A DNA stretch of 64,000 nucleotides from the NCBI GenBank assembly GCA_030666865.1, contig DAOUWZ010000002.1, forward strand, positions 24,691 through 88,690. Direction: 5' to 3'. Positions 1,036-26,089 of the stretch are shown here, one piece after another. Position 1 is the stretch's first letter. Each line of letters begins with the position of its first letter. The position numbers were made by a program, and so were the translations under genes. Below the pieces are notes generated by a model, which was not told the DNA's origin, did no database searches, and saw only the letters and a program-made list of their open reading frames with translations. The stretch comes from a bacterium. GTDB taxonomy: Bacteria > Patescibacteriota > Patescibacteriia > S139-126.

Positions 1036-2373
1036 CTAACCTACCCACGGACTATCCTGTCTAGCAAGTAGATGCTTAGCAGCCCTTGGATTTGACATTA
1101 AAGACTTAACAACCTTTTCCATTCGCGCGCTTTGAGAACCCTTAACTAAAATTAAATCTCCTTCCTTTAACATTTGCTTAAGAAAACTGCCAGCCCCGCT
1201 ATTATTTTCAAAATAATAAATTCTTTCCTCTCCCATGCCAGCTTCTTTAGCTCCTCTGCCTATATCCCTAGATTTTTCTCCAACGCAGACCAAATAATCA
1301 ATCCCCAATTCTACGGCCCGATGACCAACCTCTCTATGTCCTTGCTCAGTATAATTCCCCAATTCCAACATATCACCAAATATTGCTATTCTTCTATGCC
1401 CTGATTCTATAAAAATTTCTTTTAATACTTCAAGAGCTGCTCTGGCAGCAGCTGGCGATGAATTATAAGTATCATCAATAATCAATGTTTTCTTAATGCC
1501 ATGAACCAAATTCATCCTTCCTTTCGGCGGATTAAAAGTCTGCAACCCATCAACAATTTCTACTAAATTCATATCAAATGCAATACCAACTGCTGTTGCT
1601 GCCAGAGCTGCATAAACCTGATGCCTGCCAAGCACACCTGGTAAAAATACAGGCACGATATGCCCAGCATACAAAAGCTTAAATGACAAACCTTTAAGAA
1701 TATCTTCTTCGCCTTCCTTGCCAGTAGACATCTTCAATTCAGTTGCTTTTATAGTATTGGTATCATTTAAACCAACTGATATTAATTTCGCTTTTGTTTT
1801 GGTGAATGTCTGCTGTAATAATAAATCATCGCCATTGATAACGGCAAATCCGTCAATCGGTAATTTTTCGATAATAATTTGTTTCTCTCTGACAATATTT
1901 TCAACCTTTTTAAAATATTCCAAATGAACCGGAGCAATCGCTGTCAACACACCTACATACAAAGGGACAAAACTAGTAAGATAATCAATATCGCCCGGAT
2001 GATCTGCTCCCATTTCCAGCACCAATATTTCAGGATAACTTTTACTTCTCTTAGTAACAAGAAAAAAACATTGGAAAAGTAAAGATAACCAACCAAAAAT
2101 ATTTTTACCTGGACTATCAGCGCCAATTATGGTCAAAGGGACTCCTATTTCATTATTATAATTTTTGATATTCTGCCTAACCTGATATTTCTTTGACAAT
2201 ACAGAAAATATTGCCTCTTTGGTAGAAGTTTTTCCAACTGAACCAGTAATGCCCACTATTTTTGGCTTATACCTGCGTAAAATTAATTTGCTTTGATAGC
2301 GCAAAAATGCAATCGCTATATTTTTCAATATATTTTTCATATTATATTGTAATGACAGGTCGCGATCTGTCAT
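1036..2373 (-). CDS. murF: UDP-N-acetylmuramoyl-tripeptide--D-alanyl-D-alanine ligase (MurF). The true start is probably the internal MKNILKN near 2340.
   Basis: It carries the Mur ligase P-loop IVGITGSVGKTSTKE and has Mur ligase length and domain order. It is the last gene of the dcw cluster. Confidence 0.8.
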   Translation of the reverse strand: MTDRDLSLQYNMKNILKNIAIAFLRYQSKLILRRYKPKIVGITGSVGKTSTKEAIFSVLSKKYQVRQNIKNYNNEIGVPLTIIGADSPGKNIFGWLSLLFQCFFLVTKRSKSYPEILVLEMGADHPGDIDYLTSFVPLYVGVLTAIAPVHLEYFKKVENIVREKQIIIEKLPIDGFAVINGDDLLLQQTFTKTKAKLISVGLNDTNTIKATELKMSTGKEGEEDILKGLSFKLLYAGHIVPVFLPGVLGRHQVYAALAATAVGIAFDMNLVEIVDGLQTFNPPKGRMNLVHGIKKTLIIDDTYNSSPAAARAALEVLKEIFIESGHRRIAIFGDMLELGNYTEQGHREVGHRAVELGIDYLVCVGEKSRDIGRGAKEAGMGEERIYYFENNSGAGSFLKQMLKEGDLILVKGSQSARMEKVVKSLMSNPRAAKHLLARQDSPWVG

Positions 2374-2421
2374 TACTGATTATTTCTTAACATTTACAAC
2401 CAAATATTGTAAATGGAAGAC

Positions 2422-2455
2422 GGGAAGCCTTCCGCCTGCCTGCCGGCAGGCAGGC
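2422..2455. repeat. GC-rich palindromic repeat, family A copy 1: ggaagccttcc followed by gcctgcctgccggcaggcaggc.
   Basis: A perfect 22-nt palindrome in AT-rich intergenic DNA. It is nearly identical to the copy at 20850-20911. Confidence 0.8.
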
Positions 2456-2488
2456 TACATATTTTCTACTGTTCAACTAGTGTAGCGG

Positions 2489-2504
2489 TCCCGCGAACGC
2501 GGGA
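2489..2504. repeat. tcccgcg-aa-cgcggga hairpin, a member of a recurring tcccgcgNNcgcggga hairpin family.
   Basis: Related copies lie at 12328-12360, 22825-22848 and 59811-59828. Confidence 0.6.
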
Positions 2505-2631
2505 TAGGTTTTAATGATGATTTACTGTTTAATTGTTAGTAATATATTTCTAATCTGTTATACGGAAAAATCTATTTAATTATAAATATTCAACATATAT
2601 ATAATACAACGCCAAACACGAATAATCAAAA

Positions 2632-4386
2632 TTATAAATTCGTAGGTGAAATTTGATAATAATCCAATATAAACTTAGCAATATCACCAAATAACGGCGC
2701 AGCTGAGGAAGCTGAAAATCTTACTCCTGGATTATCAAGCTTGGCAATCATTACGAAAGCTGGATTTTCAATTGGCCCAAAACCAACAAATGAATGAATT
2801 GTTTCATCGGAATACCCGCCTTGCGGTGAAGGTACTTGCGCTGTACCGGTTTTACCAGCAATATAATACCCATCCACCCCAGCTCTTCCGGCGTGACCGT
2901 TTTCAATTACTGATACCAACATCCCAGATAGCAGGGTTGACACCTGAGGAGAAATTACTTGCCTAACAAATTGCGGCTCAAATTCTTCTACTCGTCCATC
3001 ACTATGCCAAATTTCTTCAACTAAATATGGTTTCATTAATTTTCCTCCATTAGCTATAGCGCCAAAAGCAGCCGCAATTTGCATAGGAGTAACGGTAATG
3101 CCTTGCCCAAATGATCCAGTAAAAGTATAAATAGGTCTTTTGCCCAAATTTGAAATATTACCATCAGCTTCACCAGGCAGGGTAATACCAGTTTGTCTGC
3201 CAAATCCAAACCCTTCTACATACTTTTTAAACAAATCATCGCCCACCAATGAAGCAACATGTATAGCGCCTGTATTTAGTGAATTATCCAAAATATCTGT
3301 CATAGTAGCCAGACCATGTCCATTGGGAAATTTTTCAATATCTGAATTACAAATCGGCTTATGCCAGCCCTCAACTATATCACAGCCATTATCATAATAA
3401 GTTGTCTTAGGAGTAACTTTTTCCAAATCAAGACCAGCTGCCATAGTAATAGGCTTGAATATAGAGCCTGGTTCATATTCATGAGCAATGCTTGGATTAT
3501 TAAAAATATTAATCTGCTCCTGTTCATAATATAAATTTGGATTAAAATCTGGATAAGCGCACATAGCGAGTATTGCTCCAGTATTTGGATTTAAAACAAC
3601 AACTTCCCCGCCCTTAGCTCCGAGCCTCATAGAATATTCTTTCAACTTGGTACAAACAGCATATTCAATTACAGGATCAACTGTTAAGATTAAATCTGAG
3701 CCATCAACTGCCTTTTCAACACTACGTGAAGCTACCGTAATCAACCTGCCCGCTGCATCTCGTTCAGAATTTATTACGCCATATGACCCAGATAATTCCG
3801 AATTGAAATAACCCTCTAAACCATACTGACCTTTGGCCTGATCTGATTTAAAACTGTAAAAACCTGTTAAATGAGATCCAATATTATAATTCGGGTAATA
3901 CCTAGAAGCTTCAGGTCTAAAATTTAAACCTTTAATATTAAAAGCTCCTATTTCATTTTTTTGTTCTAGAGTTAAACTTCTCTTAATAGGTTCATACGGA
4001 TCATCTGTCAAAGAAAATTTATTCAAGAAATATTGCGCTGTATCATCATCCCAAGCAAAATATTCCTGCAAAGGTTCAATAATATCAAGCGGATGTTTGT
4101 CGAAATCTTTTGGCACAGAGTATAAAAAATATAAATCCCTATTTTGTACCAGCGGATGCAGAGATTTATCTTTATCTTGCATAAATATTTCTCCACGCTG
4201 AGGTATTAATACTTTCTCGATTTCATGTTGACTAGAAGCCATAAGCTGATAATAATCCTTCTTTAAAACTTGCAAAACAAACAATTTCATTATAATTAAC
4301 AAAAATAATATTGCTACACAAAAAATAAAAAAAGTCAGCCTTGAAATAGCAAACTTCTTATTGTTTCTACCAGCCGCTCTGGACAT
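2632..4386 (-). CDS. ftsI: Penicillin-binding protein 2/3 family peptidoglycan D,D-transpeptidase (FtsI-like).
   Basis: It has an N-terminal TM segment, the SxxK motif (GSIFKP) and the KTG motif (AGKTGTAQ), and sits after ftsL in the dcw cluster. Confidence 0.8.
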   Translation of the reverse strand: MSRAAGRNNKKFAISRLTFFIFCVAILFLLIIMKLFVLQVLKKDYYQLMASSQHEIEKVLIPQRGEIFMQDKDKSLHPLVQNRDLYFLYSVPKDFDKHPLDIIEPLQEYFAWDDDTAQYFLNKFSLTDDPYEPIKRSLTLEQKNEIGAFNIKGLNFRPEASRYYPNYNIGSHLTGFYSFKSDQAKGQYGLEGYFNSELSGSYGVINSERDAAGRLITVASRSVEKAVDGSDLILTVDPVIEYAVCTKLKEYSMRLGAKGGEVVVLNPNTGAILAMCAYPDFNPNLYYEQEQINIFNNPSIAHEYEPGSIFKPITMAAGLDLEKVTPKTTYYDNGCDIVEGWHKPICNSDIEKFPNGHGLATMTDILDNSLNTGAIHVASLVGDDLFKKYVEGFGFGRQTGITLPGEADGNISNLGKRPIYTFTGSFGQGITVTPMQIAAAFGAIANGGKLMKPYLVEEIWHSDGRVEEFEPQFVRQVISPQVSTLLSGMLVSVIENGHAGRAGVDGYYIAGKTGTAQVPSPQGGYSDETIHSFVGFGPIENPAFVMIAKLDNPGVRFSASSAAPLFGDIAKFILDYYQISPTNL

Positions 4387-4397
4387 ATGTTAAATTC

Positions 4398-4715
4398 TTA
4401 TTGTTTAAAAGCAACAGCGTCCTGACCAGTTTGTAAATAATCAATTTTATCGTTTAATACCATCCCAAGCTCTGATACCACTGTTTCAATTCTTGAAAGT
4501 GATCTCAATTTAGCCGTTTCAAAACCTAATTGTTCATTATTTTTTTCCAATTTTTGTACTTGTCTTTCCAAATCTTTCAAATAATACCCTTGAGTAGATA
4601 CCATGCTTATTTGAGACACATAAATAAATACAACTACTCCTAATGATATTAAGAGGGCTATTCTTACGTATTTACTTTTTACAATTTTATTTTTATTTTG
4701 GGCACGACAATGCAT
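4398..4715 (-). CDS. ftsL: Cell division protein FtsL-like (septum formation initiator family).
   Basis: A 105-aa protein with one TM segment followed by a coiled coil, positioned between rsmH and ftsI. Confidence 0.55.
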   Translation of the reverse strand: MHCRAQNKNKIVKSKYVRIALLISLGVVVFIYVSQISMVSTQGYYLKDLERQVQKLEKNNEQLGFETAKLRSLSRIETVVSELGMVLNDKIDYLQTGQDAVAFKQ

Positions 4716-4739
4716 GGATTTATAAATATGTTTTAATTA

Positions 4740-5681
4740 TTATAACTTTTCAACAACTCTCAACTTAGCAGTTCGGCTCCTAGGATTTTCCTCCAATTCT
4801 TTTTTAGTCGCCGTAATCGGCTTTTTATTTATTATTTTAATACTAGCCCGATGTTCGCATACGCATTTTGGAATCTGAGGCGGACAAATACAATCTTTTG
4901 CCTCTTTTCTAAAATAATTTTTTATTACTCTATCTTCAATTGAATGAAAACTAATTATTCCTAACCTAGCTCCTGGTTCTAAAACTTCAATTCCTTGCGG
5001 TAAAAATTCTTCAATATTTCCTAATTCATCATTGACTTCTATTCTCAATGCTTGCCAAGTTCTAGTAGCTGGATGGATTCTTGAGGGCGTACGCCACCTG
5101 TGGGCATACACCCCCTCAATAATCTGTTTCAACCCCAATGCCGAAACTTTTTGTTTTTTTCTTTTTGCTATTATTTCACGAGCGATGGTTTTGGAAAGTG
5201 GTTCCTCCCCGTATTCGCTCAAAATAGTTGTTAATCTTTCTTCGCTGTAATTATTTACTACTTCTTCACCAGTTAATTCTGCATCTGGTGAATATCTCAA
5301 ATCCAAAGATTCTTTACTGTGAAAACTAAATCCTCTCGCATGTTCATCAACCTGAAATGAGGAATAACCCAAGTCGCATATAATACCGTTAATCTTATCA
5401 AATTTGAACTCATATATTTTTGTTTTTAATTTTTTGTAATTATCGTTGATAAAAATAATTCTGCCAGCAAAATCTTTTAAATTCTCTTTAGCCGCTACTA
5501 TTGCTTGTGGATCCAGGTCAAAAGCCAATAATTTACCTTTTGGTGCTGTTTTTTTAAGTATTTCTTGGCTATGTCCTCCACCACCCAATGTACAATCGAC
5601 AAAATTTTGATTTACTTGTGGATTAAGATACTCTATAACTTCATTTAGTAATACTGGGATATGCTGAGAAATAGATTTCAT
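4740..5681 (-). CDS. rsmH: 16S rRNA (cytosine1402-N4)-methyltransferase RsmH (MraW).
   Basis: It shows HIPVLLNEV...DCTLGGGGHS and the characteristic position after mraZ. Confidence 0.85.
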   Translation of the reverse strand: MKSISQHIPVLLNEVIEYLNPQVNQNFVDCTLGGGGHSQEILKKTAPKGKLLAFDLDPQAIVAAKENLKDFAGRIIFINDNYKKLKTKIYEFKFDKINGIICDLGYSSFQVDEHARGFSFHSKESLDLRYSPDAELTGEEVVNNYSEERLTTILSEYGEEPLSKTIAREIIAKRKKQKVSALGLKQIIEGVYAHRWRTPSRIHPATRTWQALRIEVNDELGNIEEFLPQGIEVLEPGARLGIISFHSIEDRVIKNYFRKEAKDCICPPQIPKCVCEHRASIKIINKKPITATKKELEENPRSRTAKLRVVEKL

Positions 5682-5716: not shown

Positions 5717-6148
5717 TTACACTCCAAGATCTCCCAATGCTTCAGCTATATCACTGCTATTTGCTTCAGCGTTTTGTTTGTATTTTTCCCATTCTTCTTC
5801 TGACCACACTTCAACTCTGTTATAAAGTCCAGTTAAAACAGTTTTCTTTCTAATATCAGCGTATTTCCTTAAATAATCAGGTAATATTATTCTTCCCTGC
5901 TTATCCAAGGAAACATCCATAGCACCAGCTAGCATCAATCTAGCAAAAGCTCTGGATTTACTTTGTGAAATAGGCAAAGCAGCTAATTTTTCTGCCAACT
6001 TTTTCCATTCAGGTTTAGTATAAACAAACAATGATTTATCCAATCCTTTGGTTACTACTACTCCTTGCTTAAAATCAACACGAAACTTAACAGGTACTGC
6101 TAACCTGCCCTTTTCATCAATACTGTGTTTAAATTCACCAATAAACAT
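5717..6148 (-). CDS. mraZ: Transcriptional regulator MraZ.
   Basis: A duplicated MraZ domain, FxGxxxHxxDxKGR (GEFKHSIDEKGRLAVP) and ...DKQGRIILP, in 143 aa. Confidence 0.85.
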   Translation of the reverse strand: MFIGEFKHSIDEKGRLAVPVKFRVDFKQGVVVTKGLDKSLFVYTKPEWKKLAEKLAALPISQSKSRAFARLMLAGAMDVSLDKQGRIILPDYLRKYADIRKKTVLTGLYNRVEVWSEEEWEKYKQNAEANSSDIAEALGDLGV

Positions 6149-6206
6149 TTTTTTGTTTGATTTTAGCCTAGTTTTACTTGGTTTTATTAAATGTTGAACA
6201 AATTAG

Positions 6207-6314
6207 TTATCCACAAAATATCGAGGTTATCCCCACATTTATCCACTTTTCACCCTTCAAATACATTATACCCCACATAACTAAAAAAATCAACCACTTT
6301 TACCTATGGATAAC
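6207..6314. promoter_or_regulatory. Cluster of four DnaA-box-like 9-mers upstream of mraZ.
   Basis: TTATCCACA (6207-6215), TTATCCCCA (6227-6235), TTATCCACT (6239-6247) and TTATCCATA in reverse complement (6306-6314). A fifth degenerate box, ttatAccccacat, lies near 6266. Confidence 0.5.
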
Positions 6315-6379
6315 TCCTAAATATACAAAAAAAGGCGTAATTTACGCCTTTTCTTTAAAATATTGATAATCCAATTAAT

Positions 6380-6964
6380 TCATAAATACTTTTCCAAAAG
6401 CAATTTACCTGCTTCTCTGATATCTTCAATACGATAAAAAATAAACTTACCTCTTGTAGTTATTCCCCATTCCAAAATTATATTCTTTTTATTCATTTTC
6501 CTGGCTAATAATATTTTTCTTCTTTCTCTAGATGTTAAAAACTTTTTTTCACCTATCACTTGAAATAATTTCTTATTTTTATAATAATAGCTTGCGTCAA
6601 TCTTTCCATGTCTCATTAAATTAACTATCTCGCCTTCTACTGCTTCTATTATTTCACTATTCTTCTCAATTAGAATTGTTCCGCCTTTCTTCCATTTCCA
6701 TGATGGGTAGACAACAAAAACTGTTTTTCCCTTTTGCTGATTCTGAAATTTATCAATTTGGGCTGGAACCTTGTCTTTAATCAGCCAATTTATATATAAA
6801 TTATTCCATTCAGCACCTTTAATATCAACCGTTCTAATTGTCCAACCAACATAATCTTTAATTTTATAAAATTTATCTAAATCCTTTGATGATTTTACAA
6901 ATTCCCATTCTGGATGAGGCAATCCTGCCTTATCAATTAATTTTAATCCTTGGCAAATTGTCAT
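6380..6964 (-). CDS. Hypothetical protein.
   Basis: A 194-aa ORF with coding-like composition. I recognised no family. Confidence 0.4.
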   Translation of the reverse strand: MTICQGLKLIDKAGLPHPEWEFVKSSKDLDKFYKIKDYVGWTIRTVDIKGAEWNNLYINWLIKDKVPAQIDKFQNQQKGKTVFVVYPSWKWKKGGTILIEKNSEIIEAVEGEIVNLMRHGKIDASYYYKNKKLFQVIGEKKFLTSRERRKILLARKMNKKNIILEWGITTRGKFIFYRIEDIREAGKLLLEKYL

Positions 6965-22906: not shown

Positions 22907-24505
22907 CTATACTAACGATTTGCCAGTAATTTCATCAGGCGGATTGATTCCTAATAATTTTAATACTGTCGGCGCTATATCGGCTAAAACACCAACTGGA
23001 GTTATTGTGCTTAAATCAAAATCCTCTCCAGCCCGACCTTGTCCAAGCCATTGCTGACCAATCATAACAAATGGTACTGGTGAAGTTGAATGTTCTTTAT
23101 CCACTTCACCACTTTTTAATTTAATAATCTCTTCTGCATTACCATGGTCGGCTGTTACCAGCATAACGCCATTCTTAGCTAATACGCTTTCCGATATTCT
23201 CCCCAAGCACTCATCCACTGCTTCAATACCCTTAATAGTGGCTTGCAAATCCCCAGTATGAGCAATCATGTCAGGTGTGGCATAATTAACTAAAATAAAT
23301 TCATATTTTCCGCTCTCTACAGATTCAGTAACTTTTTTAGTAATTTCATATGAAGACATCTCAGGTTTGGTAACATAATTCGCTATTTTTGGTGATGGCA
23401 CCATAATATGTTCTTCACCCGGAAATGGTTTTTCAATACCTCCATTAAAGAAAAAAGTGACATGTGCATATTTTTCAGTTTCAGCAATATGAACCTGCTT
23501 CATTCCATTGTCAGACAAAACTTTAGCCAATGGCATTGAAACAGTTTCTGGAGGAAAGGCAATATTGTCAGTCAGATTTTTTTCATATTCTGTCATAGTA
23601 ACAAAAAAAATATTTTTACATACTTTTTTTCTATCAAAACCTGAAAAATCATCAAATAAAAATGCCTTTGACATTTCTCTAGCTCGATCTGATCTGAAAT
23701 TAAAATAGATGATAGCATCATTATCATCTACAGTTGTTATTGGCTTTTCATTTCTAGTAACAACTGTGGGAATAAATTCTTCATCAAAAACCCCTTGATC
23801 ATAAGATTCTTGAATAATTTCTAAAGGATTATCTCCTGACTTTTCTGATTGACCTTGAATTATCGCACTATATACTAATTCAATCCGATCCCACCTGTTA
23901 TCCCTGTCCATTGCATAATATCTTCCTGAAATCGTAGCTAATTCCCCCAACCCGATAATTTTCAAAACTTTCAACAAACTAGTAATAAATGACAAACCGC
24001 TATTTTTGGATGTATCTCTGCCATCCAAAAAAGCGTGTATATACAATTTTTTTACTTTGTGCATTTTAGCCGTTTCAATCAAGGCAAATAAATGCTCAAT
24101 GTAGCTATGAACCCCGCCATCAGATACCAAACCCATAATATGCAAACTTGAATCATTCTTCTTTACATGTTCAAATGCATCTATAAAAGCCTTATTCTTA
24201 ACAAATGTTCCATCAGAAATAGCTCGAGTTATTCTTGGTAAATTATGATATAATATTTTTCCTGATCCAATAGAAAGATGCCCAACTTCACTATTACCCA
24301 TTTCACCCCATGGTAATCCTACTGATTCACCAGAGGCTTGCAGAGTAAAAGCCGGATAATTTGCAATAAAATTATCATAGTTTGGAGTTTTAGCCAGGAT
24401 TATAGCATTACCAATTGACGGCGGTGCTATTCCCCATCCATCTAAAATTACTAATACTACCGGTTTTGTTATATTTGCTACCATTTTATTATATTTACTG
24501 CACAA
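22907..24505 (-). CDS. gpmI: 2,3-bisphosphoglycerate-independent phosphoglycerate mutase, paralog 2.
   Basis: VVLVILDGWGIAP and the catalytic Ser motif GNSEVGH, full length at 532 aa. Confidence 0.85.
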   Translation of the reverse strand: MCSKYNKMVANITKPVVLVILDGWGIAPPSIGNAIILAKTPNYDNFIANYPAFTLQASGESVGLPWGEMGNSEVGHLSIGSGKILYHNLPRITRAISDGTFVKNKAFIDAFEHVKKNDSSLHIMGLVSDGGVHSYIEHLFALIETAKMHKVKKLYIHAFLDGRDTSKNSGLSFITSLLKVLKIIGLGELATISGRYYAMDRDNRWDRIELVYSAIIQGQSEKSGDNPLEIIQESYDQGVFDEEFIPTVVTRNEKPITTVDDNDAIIYFNFRSDRAREMSKAFLFDDFSGFDRKKVCKNIFFVTMTEYEKNLTDNIAFPPETVSMPLAKVLSDNGMKQVHIAETEKYAHVTFFFNGGIEKPFPGEEHIMVPSPKIANYVTKPEMSSYEITKKVTESVESGKYEFILVNYATPDMIAHTGDLQATIKGIEAVDECLGRISESVLAKNGVMLVTADHGNAEEIIKLKSGEVDKEHSTSPVPFVMIGQQWLGQGRAGEDFDLSTITPVGVLADIAPTVLKLLGINPPDEITGKSLV

Positions 24506-24514
24506 TTAGTTTCG

Positions 24515-26089
24515 TTACAAATCCAATTTTAATAAATTTCTTCCTGTCATTTCCCGAGAAGGTTTTACTCCCATTACTCCTAAAATTGTCGGCGCAATAT
24601 CAGCTAGAGCGCCTTTTGGCAAAACCTGTTTATTAGACAATTTTTCATTACTCACTATAAAAAACGGAACCGGATTGGTTGAATGTTCAGTGTCTATTTC
24701 ACCAGTTTCAATATTGATAATTTCTTCAATATTTCCATGATCAGCGGTAATAAACAAAACTCCATCCCGGCTTAACACTTCATCTATTATTTCCTTCAAT
24801 ATTTTATCAATAGACTCAACTGCTTTAATAGCAGCTCCCAAATTTCCAGTATGACCCATCATGTCAGGACTAGCTAAATTTATTCCATAAAAATCATATT
24901 TCTCTAATTTAATATTATCAATCAAATATTTAGCAACCAGCTGAGTAGACATTTCCGGAGTCTGCTCATAAGAATCTACTTTTGGCGATGGTACAAAAAT
25001 TCTATCCTCTCCAGCAATTGGAATGTCATAACCGCCGTTAAAAAAATAAGTCATATGAGCATATTTTTCACTTTCAGCTATATACAATTGCTCATAATTT
25101 CGCAAAACCATGGGCAAGGTACCTTCAATATCAGCTGAAGGATAAGCCGTCAAAACATTTTCTAAATCCGGCCCAAAATCTGTCATAGCAACAAACATTA
25201 TATTCTTTAACTTTTTGGTTCTTTTGAATGAATTTTTATTTAAGTTTTCAAAATCTGCTTGAACAAAGGGTTTGGTTAATTGCCTGGCTCGATCAGAACG
25301 TAAATTAAAAAAAATTATGGAATCTTTGTCATTCATCCGAGCAAATTTTTTATTCTTATCTATAGATATTATATATGGACTAATAAACTCATCTGTCTCG
25401 CCATTGGCATAAGCTTCTTTTATAGCTTGTTCGGGTTTTAAAACTACATTACCTTTCCCCAATATCAAAGCGTCATATACTTTCTTTGTTTTTTTCCAAT
25501 CTTTCTTTCTGTCAAGATAAACCCTTCCCATAATAGTAGCGATTCTTTCATTCGGTTGCAAAAATTCTTCTAACTCCCTTAAAAATTTAATACTCGCATA
25601 TTTAGGCGTATCTCTGCCATCTGTAAATAAATGCAAAAAAATATTTTGGATCCCATAACTCCTGATCATCTTAATTAAAAATCTTAAATGATCAGGATTT
25701 GAATGAGCAGAATCTTTATCAGATAAAAGCCCCATTAGATGTAAGTCACCTCCAGTGTTTAAAACATGATCAATAGCAGCTACAAATGCTGCGTTTTTAA
25801 AAAATGTACCATTAGCAATACTTTTATTAATCACTGCTACATCTTGTTTGATTATTCTACCAGCGCCAATAGTCATATGTCCAGCTTCACTATTCCCATC
25901 TTGCCCTGGCAACAAACCAACATCAACTCCTGAAGCAGATAATGTAGTATGAATATGCTCTCTCCATAACATACTGTAAGTAGGAGTTTTAGCCATTTCA
26001 ATTGGATTGTCAGGCTGGTTTTCAGTAATCCCCCAACCGTCAATTATTACCAAAACATAAGGCTTTATTTTTTTTACTTTATTATTCAT
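24515..26089 (-). CDS. gpmI: 2,3-bisphosphoglycerate-independent phosphoglycerate mutase, paralog 1.
   Basis: YVLVIIDGWGI and GNSEAGH. It aligns to the adjacent copy across its whole length (sampled N-terminal segments show few identities) and is separated from it by only 9 nt. Confidence 0.85.
   Translation of the reverse strand: MNNKVKKIKPYVLVIIDGWGITENQPDNPIEMAKTPTYSMLWREHIHTTLSASGVDVGLLPGQDGNSEAGHMTIGAGRIIKQDVAVINKSIANGTFFKNAAFVAAIDHVLNTGGDLHLMGLLSDKDSAHSNPDHLRFLIKMIRSYGIQNIFLHLFTDGRDTPKYASIKFLRELEEFLQPNERIATIMGRVYLDRKKDWKKTKKVYDALILGKGNVVLKPEQAIKEAYANGETDEFISPYIISIDKNKKFARMNDKDSIIFFNLRSDRARQLTKPFVQADFENLNKNSFKRTKKLKNIMFVAMTDFGPDLENVLTAYPSADIEGTLPMVLRNYEQLYIAESEKYAHMTYFFNGGYDIPIAGEDRIFVPSPKVDSYEQTPEMSTQLVAKYLIDNIKLEKYDFYGINLASPDMMGHTGNLGAAIKAVESIDKILKEIIDEVLSRDGVLFITADHGNIEEIINIETGEIDTEHSTNPVPFFIVSNEKLSNKQVLPKGALADIAPTILGVMGVKPSREMTGRNLLKLDL

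Follow-up and report, generated by a model that had tools for sequence, protein, structure and literature searches.

Conserved DnaA-box-like elements flank a predicted MraZ operator in the division-operon promoter of Patescibacteria

Genes and box cluster upstream of mraZ

The window, by which we mean the whole 64-kb stretch of DNA that was analysed, contains an operon led by mraZ, with the genes after mraZ spanning positions 1036-5681 on the minus strand. The gene upstream of mraZ is encoded on the same strand and has a strong intrinsic terminator of its own at its end, which indicates that the mraZ promoter is the start of a separate transcription unit. The genes of the operon were assigned with Pfam.

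6380-6964, minus strand: upstream co-directional ORF of 194 aa
6327-6355, minus strand: intrinsic terminator of the 6380-6964 gene (13-pair stem and T run; inverted repeat I1)
5717-6148, minus strand: mraZ (Pfam MraZ, 8e-39)
4740-5681, minus strand: rsmH
4398-4715, minus strand: ftsL/DivIC-like gene
2632-4386, minus strand: transpeptidase PBP
1036-2373, minus strand: Mur ligase

The initial annotation had reported four DnaA boxes and a degenerate fifth within 110 bp upstream of mraZ, and all of them are present. They lie inside the 231-bp gap between the two minus-strand genes, where 107 bp 5' of mraZ contain four copies of TTATCCACA that deviate from it at one position or none.

6207-6215, plus strand: perfect box TTATCCACA, no mismatches
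6227-6235, plus strand: box TTATCCCCA, one mismatch
6239-6247, plus strand: box TTATCCACT, one mismatch
6305-6313, minus strand: box TTATCCATA, one mismatch
about 6266-6278: degenerate fifth box, read on the minus strand as TGTGGGGTATAAT

The total number of one-mismatch matches to TTATCCACA in the 64 kb is ordinary (28 vs 22 expected), and the copy at 6207-6215 is the sole perfect one. Four boxes within 110 bp are found in the window only at this site, and none of 300 dinucleotide-preserving shuffles reproduced such a density (the densest arrangement, three boxes per 110 bp, appeared in two shuffles). Thus, the cluster is not a product of chance and has no counterpart elsewhere in the window.

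A predicted sigma-70-type promoter and MraZ operator

Read on the strand of mraZ, the same interval holds a predicted promoter, a predicted operator and two outer elements, some of them fused to one another.

6305-6313, minus strand: upstream DnaA-box-like element TTATCCATA, one mismatch, inverted relative to the downstream boxes
6293-6288, minus strand: predicted -35 element TTGATT, with a GTGG box (6297-6294) before and overlapping it; block 6288-6297 reads GTGGTTGATT
6270-6265, minus strand: predicted -10 element TATAAT, fused to a GTGG box (6276-6273); block 6265-6276 reads GTGGGGTATAAT
6233-6256, minus strand: predicted MraZ operator AGGGTGAAAA GTGGATAAAT GTGGGG, about +2 to +25 from the predicted start
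6205-6216, minus strand: distal DnaA-box-like element TTGTGGATAACT, with the perfect 9-mer at 6215-6207
6149-6204, minus strand: rest of the 5' UTR, AT-rich

In order, the terminator is followed by GAG-TTATCCATA-GG, aaaa-GTGG-TTGATT, a 17-nt spacer ending in GTGGGG, TATAAT, gtatttga-AGGGTGAAAA-GTGGATAAAT-GTGGGGATAA, a 12-nt spacer, TGTGGATAACT and 56 nt of AT-rich leader up to the ATG. The arrangement TTGATT-17-TATAAT agrees with the sigma-70 consensus at 10 of 12 positions and is the sole good candidate on the minus strand; it places the transcription start at about 6258. Reading the minus strand as a promoter identifies the supposed fifth box as the -10 hexamer fused to GTGG.

The two inner boxes, at 6239-6247 and 6227-6235, correspond to a pair of direct repeats, GTGG-N6-GTGG, that begins about 12 nt past the predicted start, 19 nt downstream of the predicted promoter. 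Together with a degenerate box (AGGGTG, 6256-6251), the canonical GTGG boxes at 6246-6243 and 6236-6233 have a period of 10 bp, and further in-phase GTGG boxes cover the -10 and -35 elements. This is the known form of MraZ operators, which are defined by GTG(G/T) boxes with 6-nt separation (PMC12957436) and which in B. subtilis consist of GTGG[A/T]G repeats needed for repression (bioRxiv 10.1101/2022.02.09.479790). The two inner boxes and the fifth resemble DnaA boxes only because of their A/T-rich spacers.

Conservation agrees with this assignment. The upstream sequence was long enough in 78 Patescibacteria mraZ loci, and 74 of these have GTGG-N6-GTGG within 600 bp 5' of the gene, the background being 0.044 copies per 600 nt on either strand. 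In an unbiased search for enriched 8-mers across the loci the top motif was AAAAGTGGGGA(T/A), and 8-mers over the -10 block (GTGGGGTA, GGGGTATA and GTATAATG) were enriched as well. In the alignment with the three closest genomes (A1), the conserved blocks are the -35 element with its GTGG, the -10 element with its GTGG, the operator and GTGGATAAC of the distal element: GTGGTTGATTTTTTT at -35, GTGGGGTATAATGT at -10 and the operator block 6233-6256 are invariant, while the remaining leader has diverged and the 5' UTR at 6149-6204 displays no conservation. The MraZ encoded in the window, aligned to the solved structures 1n0e and 9qlr, retains D11, K13, R15, D82 and R86. Residues K13, R15 and R86 of each subunit touch the operator boxes (PMC12957436). 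The locus thus has phased GTG(G/T) boxes in the promoter of a mraZ-led operon, and its MraZ has both DXXXR motifs as well as K13, R15 and R86.

Taken together, the interval is, with high confidence, a predicted sigma-70-type promoter with a MraZ operator (Pmra), serving the mraZ-rsmH-ftsL-pbp division and cell-wall operon. The inner boxes of the initial annotation are MraZ GTGG repeats, to which binding of MraZ is predicted by homology with systems where it was tested.

The possibility that the 5' UTR acts as a structured RNA leader or riboswitch was rejected: folding of the leader gave no significant structure (z-score 0.09), and the 5' UTR had no Rfam match above threshold. These two results point to a signal acting at the level of DNA. 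A 'terminator-like' hairpin at 6235-6222 is a weak 5-pair stem within the MraZ operator and was treated as a false positive.

Leaders of some related loci differ in length. In five of them (L019, L025, L027, L029 and L032) the operator lies 220-300 nt 5' of the mraZ ATG, and the long leader in between is conserved in the clade, with motifs such as ccaattcc[ga]c and ccacttttgtttctttc; a leader RNA and a small ORF are both conceivable. In two loci of Falkowbacteria type (L030, 5825-6001, and L016, about 2220-2397) the first eight codons of mraZ occur twice, as a pseudo-start (ATGTTTATAGGAGAATACAATCAC) and again at the real ATG, with about 175 nt inserted between the two copies; the ends of the insert are inverted (CCCCATACGAAGT ... 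ACTTCGTACGGGG). A related piece is present upstream of the mraZ promoter in L009. The insert had no match in Rfam and resembles a small MITE-like element, the insertion of which would have regenerated the 5' end of mraZ.

Relation to replication origins

Dense DnaA-like boxes adjoining AT-rich DNA are what one would look for in a chromosomal origin, and the initial annotation had considered the box density typical of oriC, of datA/DARS-like sites or of a DnaA-regulated promoter, and a regulatory or titration role as likely as an origin. It had not recognized the site as the mraZ promoter, nor two boxes and the fifth as MraZ repeats and the -10 element. The regulatory part of its reading is plausible, and the origin part fails on all counts considered. 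GC skew stays negative past the site (left -0.199, right -0.254), and cumulative skew is monotonic over the 64 kb, with no turning point; of 43 related loci that reach at least 5.5 kb to either side of the mraZ promoter, 42 have a skew of the same sign left and right of it. Searches by tblastn, with E. coli DnaA as the query, found no dnaA in the 64-kb window and none within about 6 kb of mraZ in 79 related Patescibacteria loci. Pfam scanning of 50 of the 62 window ORFs of at least 100 aa likewise detected neither dnaA nor dnaN, in agreement with the initial annotation, which had placed both genes outside the window; the scanned ORFs are ordinary housekeeping genes, dnaE among them.

No run of three or more DnaA-trios lies beside the boxes. 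The AT-rich stretch that had been noted next to them is real and corresponds to the 5' UTR, but it is not exceptional: the maximum near the site is 82.5% AT per 40 nt, and 12.8% of 40-nt windows across the 64 kb reach at least 80%. As noted before, gene orientation does not switch here; the flanking genes are co-directional, and terminator, promoter and 5' UTR occupy the whole intergenic space. The position of mraZ on long contigs of relatives varies. Hence, none of the features that define oriC (a skew sign change, an unwinding element or DnaA-trios, linkage to dnaA/dnaN with an orientation switch) was found, and we rejected the origin, which we regard as extremely improbable.

Several observations concern the window more generally. 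Beyond the window, its MraZ was found only on short contigs (11.7 and 5 kb). Cofactor-independent phosphoglycerate mutase (iPGM_N and Metalloenzyme domains) is encoded by a tandem pair of paralogues (22907-24505 and 24515-26089) beside enolase and PGK. A 133-aa ORF at 7137-7538 matches only the N-terminal TsaD/TsaB fold (positions 30-88 of 264 in Pfam TsaD) and, judging from this match, may encode a short TsaB-like protein or be a truncated gene.

Conserved DnaA-box-like elements flanking the operator

In contrast to the inner boxes, the two outer boxes are not accounted for by the GTGG repeats of the operator. The distal box, at about +43 to +51 from the predicted start, follows the second MraZ box at a distance of 22 bp, and its GTGGATAAC is invariant in A1, where the 12-nt spacer separating it from the operator has diverged in sequence and kept its length. 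Across Patescibacteria, TGTGNATAA with at most one mismatch is found downstream of the MraZ pair in 45 of 75 loci. Its orientation is constant and its offset takes one of two values in 38 loci, 22 bp (28 loci) or 12 bp (10 loci). Among the distal boxes of the non-redundant set, 25% match perfectly and 56% within one mismatch, compared to 0.2% and 4.6% in shuffles.

The upstream box at 6305-6313 lies at about -47 to -55 from the predicted start. In the window it has a mismatch at a conserved C and it is absent from the three closest genomes (A1), so that, of the two outer boxes, the perfect distal one is well supported and the upstream TTATCCATA is weaker. In the phylum, perfect TTATNCACA is present in the zone upstream of -35 in 35 of 73 loci vs 0.8% of shuffles; for the non-redundant set the respective values are 44% and 0.7%. 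Of these upstream boxes, 25 have the same orientation as the downstream ones and 22 are inverted. Boxes of the same orientation are located at -62 and -52, with a phasing of about 10.5 bp, and inverted ones at variable distances from -58 to -149. The two outer boxes of the window make up a perfect inverted repeat of 9 nt, AGTTATCCA / TGGATAACT (I6; 6205-6213 and 6307-6315), whose arms are 93 nt apart and bracket the whole promoter and operator.

The consensus of the outer boxes is yTGTGnATAA(C/A)T, with G more frequent than C, T and A at the fifth position. Conservation extends beyond the search pattern to position 10 (C or A) and position 11 (T), the latter being held in the inverted upstream subset too and shared with the distal box. 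True MraZ boxes read AAAA-GTGG-GG and are thus unlike this consensus. It equals the DnaA-box consensus with a free fifth position, as judged by comparison with E. coli boxes, which may differ from those of the host. By the 9-mer TTATNCACA, one of the four boxes of the window is a perfect DnaA box and three have one mismatch, although the middle two are better explained as MraZ boxes. The outer boxes display above-chance conservation, a free fifth position and occurrence in either orientation, as would be expected at a DnaA-regulated promoter. The earlier suggestion of such a promoter may accordingly hold for the two outer boxes, which belong to the TGTGNATAA motif class, and does not hold for the inner ones.

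The motif is concentrated at mraZ. Upstream of mraZ the density of exact TTATCCACA is 1.5 per kb, vs 0.024 per kb elsewhere (873 kb of loci). In the 450 bp 5' of mraZ it is about 60-fold denser than in the remaining ~837 kb. Outside this zone, the search for motif clusters in ~870 kb of related loci returned scattered single matches and one pair only. The pair (L072, 4562-4570 and 4641-4649) consists of two perfect TTATCCACA boxes 79 bp apart in intergenic DNA with no GTGG repeats nearby, just 5' of a promoter-like TTGACT...TATATT and an ORF for a small membrane protein, 1.4 kb upstream of mraZ. Judging from its arrangement, it is a candidate for a second target of the same factor. In one clade (L030, 5490-5516, together with L012, L016, L019, L025, L027, L029 and L032) the upstream TTAT[G/A]CACA box lies in the loop of the terminator of the upstream gene, the hairpin of which reads AATCCAC - loop - GTGGATT, with GTGGAT contained in its arms.

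As a control we used 80 Bacillaceae-type mraZ loci from metagenomes, 73 of which have enough upstream sequence; one locus encodes a protein 100% identical to the B. subtilis MraZ sequence used as the query. All 73 have GTGG-N6-GTGG, whereas perfect TTATNCACA is at chance level (3% vs 1.5% in shuffles). No consensus box was found at the B. subtilis-type mraZ promoter and no second motif at E. coli Pmra. The motif is therefore not intrinsic to MraZ operators, but is a feature of Patescibacteria.

The Bacillaceae loci have a conserved element of their own. In L085-L098, AGAAAGTGGGG is found 14-15 nt 5' of the annotated mraZ ATG; in a non-redundant set of 44 operators, 23 have its GTGG, with MraZ-type flanks, 21 nt past the last (third) repeat. 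The locus of B. subtilis type has AAGGAG 5 nt before an in-frame GTG. The element may be a fourth MraZ box, a ribosome-binding site or an alternative start.

Candidate factors for the outer boxes

Based on motif identity and one functional precedent, we consider binding of the outer boxes by DnaA, with co-regulation of Pmra, to be an evenly balanced proposition. In its favour, the match extends to the free fifth position, to independence of orientation and to the flanks of E. coli R boxes.

Some of the evidence fits an extended MraZ array equally well, namely the 22/12-bp spacing, the ~10.5-bp phasing and the Bacillaceae GTGG at 21 nt. Every box, including the outer two, would then be a MraZ site of a lineage-specific extended consensus, and DnaA would play no part; the MraZ ring (octamer or dodecamer) would wrap ~90-110 bp of promoter DNA via in-phase boxes. 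The strict placement of the distal box relative to the last repeat, across a spacer that keeps its length and not its sequence, would fit such a ring. Likewise, GTGG boxes at 0, 10, -10, about -31 and about -52, together with the upstream boxes of the same orientation at -62, fall on multiples of about 10.4 bp. Moreover, the extra GTGG of Bacillaceae (23/44 operators) points the same way, GGATAA is found inside the Patescibacteria operator itself in 16 of 39 cases, and the fifth position of the outer boxes is G or T, as MraZ is expected to prefer, in ~70-76%. However, a ring reading direct repeats leaves unexplained why roughly every second upstream box is inverted and variably spaced, and the position contacted by MraZ (contact from PMC12957436) is A or C in 24-30% of the outer boxes. 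ATAA(C/A)T is kept even where GTGG has been lost, e.g. in TGTTAATAACT and TGGGTATAACT, and the 5' flank is y-T rather than the AAAA of true MraZ boxes. Finally, the motif is missing from Bacillaceae and E. coli MraZ operators, and the pair of perfect boxes in L072 has no GTGG repeats. On balance, we judge the all-MraZ explanation unlikely, albeit the main rival.

Binding of the outer boxes by another transcription factor of Patescibacteria, with a site that happens to coincide with TGTGNATAA, is improbable. The assignment to DnaA does rest on motif identity, and the consensus used for comparison is that of E. coli, which may not be that of the host. Nevertheless, the extent of the DnaA match described above speaks against it, the motif, in contrast to the sites of Rex or CRP-type regulators, lacks a palindromic partner, and no candidate regulator is consistently encoded beside mraZ.

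A different role for DnaA binding, in which the cluster serves as a titration or reactivation site (comparable to datA, DARS or the DnaA-box clusters of B. subtilis) and acts on initiation instead of mraZ transcription, appears very improbable. Four boxes with at most one mismatch in 107 bp would suit it, and such clusters are known outside oriC in other bacteria (PMC2533591). But only one of the boxes is perfect and two are better explained as MraZ boxes, while most related loci have just one to three. Furthermore, the positions of the boxes are fixed relative to promoter elements across the phylum, which indicates control of transcription.

A possible link between replication and division

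How chromosome replication and division are coupled is a matter of debate, and direct control of division genes by DnaA is supported by a few observations made in model organisms. Patescibacteria are ultra-small, mostly uncultured and have very few regulators.

As the joint best explanation, which we favour slightly, we propose a MraZ-autoregulated Pmra with flanking boxes that would be bound by DnaA and modulate the division operon, and not an origin. In this scenario, transcription would start near 6258 on the minus strand from the sigma-70-type promoter. An oligomer of MraZ, the product of the first gene, would bind the 10-bp-phased GTGG repeats past the start and over the -10 and -35 elements, block RNA polymerase and thereby autoregulate the operon, as suggested by homology to E. 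coli, B. subtilis and Mycoplasma, in which this has been demonstrated. DnaA bound at +43 to +51 and near -50 would bracket the promoter, where it might strengthen or replace repression by MraZ and modulate, probably repress, the operon according to replication status. Expression of ftsL and the PBP gene would then track the state of the replication initiator.

A broader proposal, to which we lend somewhat less than even confidence, is that consensus DnaA boxes are built into the MraZ-controlled promoter throughout the phylum, forming a DnaA-MraZ composite operator that would couple division genes to initiation status. The putative composite arrangement consists of one box with a set distance to the MraZ repeats (22 or 12 bp) and at least one upstream of -35, and was not seen in E. 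coli or Bacillaceae. If true, it would represent a simple and testable link between replication and division in a huge and little-understood lineage. The locus also has a practical side for annotation, as AT-rich genomes have MraZ operators (GTGGATAA, GGGGATAA) that imitate clusters of DnaA boxes and can mislead oriC predictors.

Comparison with known systems

The likeness of the cluster to known DnaA-binding sites is partial. As in datA, DARS and the DnaA-box clusters of B. subtilis, several DnaA-like boxes are gathered within ~100 bp outside oriC; unlike in those sites, half of the boxes in the window are explained by MraZ and all are placed relative to -35, -10 and the operator. The outer boxes also match the R boxes of E. 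coli oriC. R1 is CTGTGGATAACA, the reverse complement of R2 is TTGTGTATAACC and R3 is TTTGGATAACTA, and their 9-mers and flanks agree with both the Patescibacteria consensus and the window copy TTGTGGATAACT. The context differs, in that the boxes of the window lie in a promoter, with no unwinding element, skew switch or adjoining dnaA.

The operator itself is close to those described before. E. coli Pmra has the same layout as the window, with TTGACA-18-TAAACT followed after 7 nt by GTGGGaaattGTGGGgcaaaGTGGGaataa, so that three GTGGG boxes begin 7 nt past -10. With E. coli Pmra, the MBRs of B. subtilis and the four-box operator of Mycoplasma, the window shares direct GTG(G/T) repeats with 6-nt spacers, A-rich 5' flanks, the position just past -10, the mraZ-led operon and K13, R15 and R86 in the cognate MraZ. 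It differs in having just two canonical contiguous boxes with a degenerate third (AGGGTG), in the fusion of GTGG boxes to -10 and -35 and in the ATAA-type spacers that mimic DnaA boxes. Furthermore, the window operator is flanked by a second motif, unlike those of E. coli and Bacillaceae.

The one precedent for DnaA acting at this operon comes from B. subtilis, in which DnaA binds the yllB(mraZ)-ftsL promoter and exerts negative control on it when replication is perturbed (Goranov 2005, as cited in PMC2533591; PMC10532879). The operon concerned, yllB(mraZ)-ylxA-ftsL-pbpB, is the same, and the logic proposed here, with the initiator as a transcription factor, is alike. In our search of the literature we found no description of DnaA boxes in Patescibacteria or at mraZ promoters. 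B. subtilis offers a functional precedent only; as a structural one for consensus boxes at Pmra it was rejected, because Bacillaceae promoters have no boxes above chance. No consensus boxes lie near the B. subtilis promoter, whereas those of Patescibacteria, as known from their sequences, are consensus-grade, fixed in position and conserved. As a MraZ-operated Pmra, the element is of a known class, and what the Patescibacteria loci appear to add to it is a phylum-wide set of DnaA-box-like elements in the promoter of the division operon.
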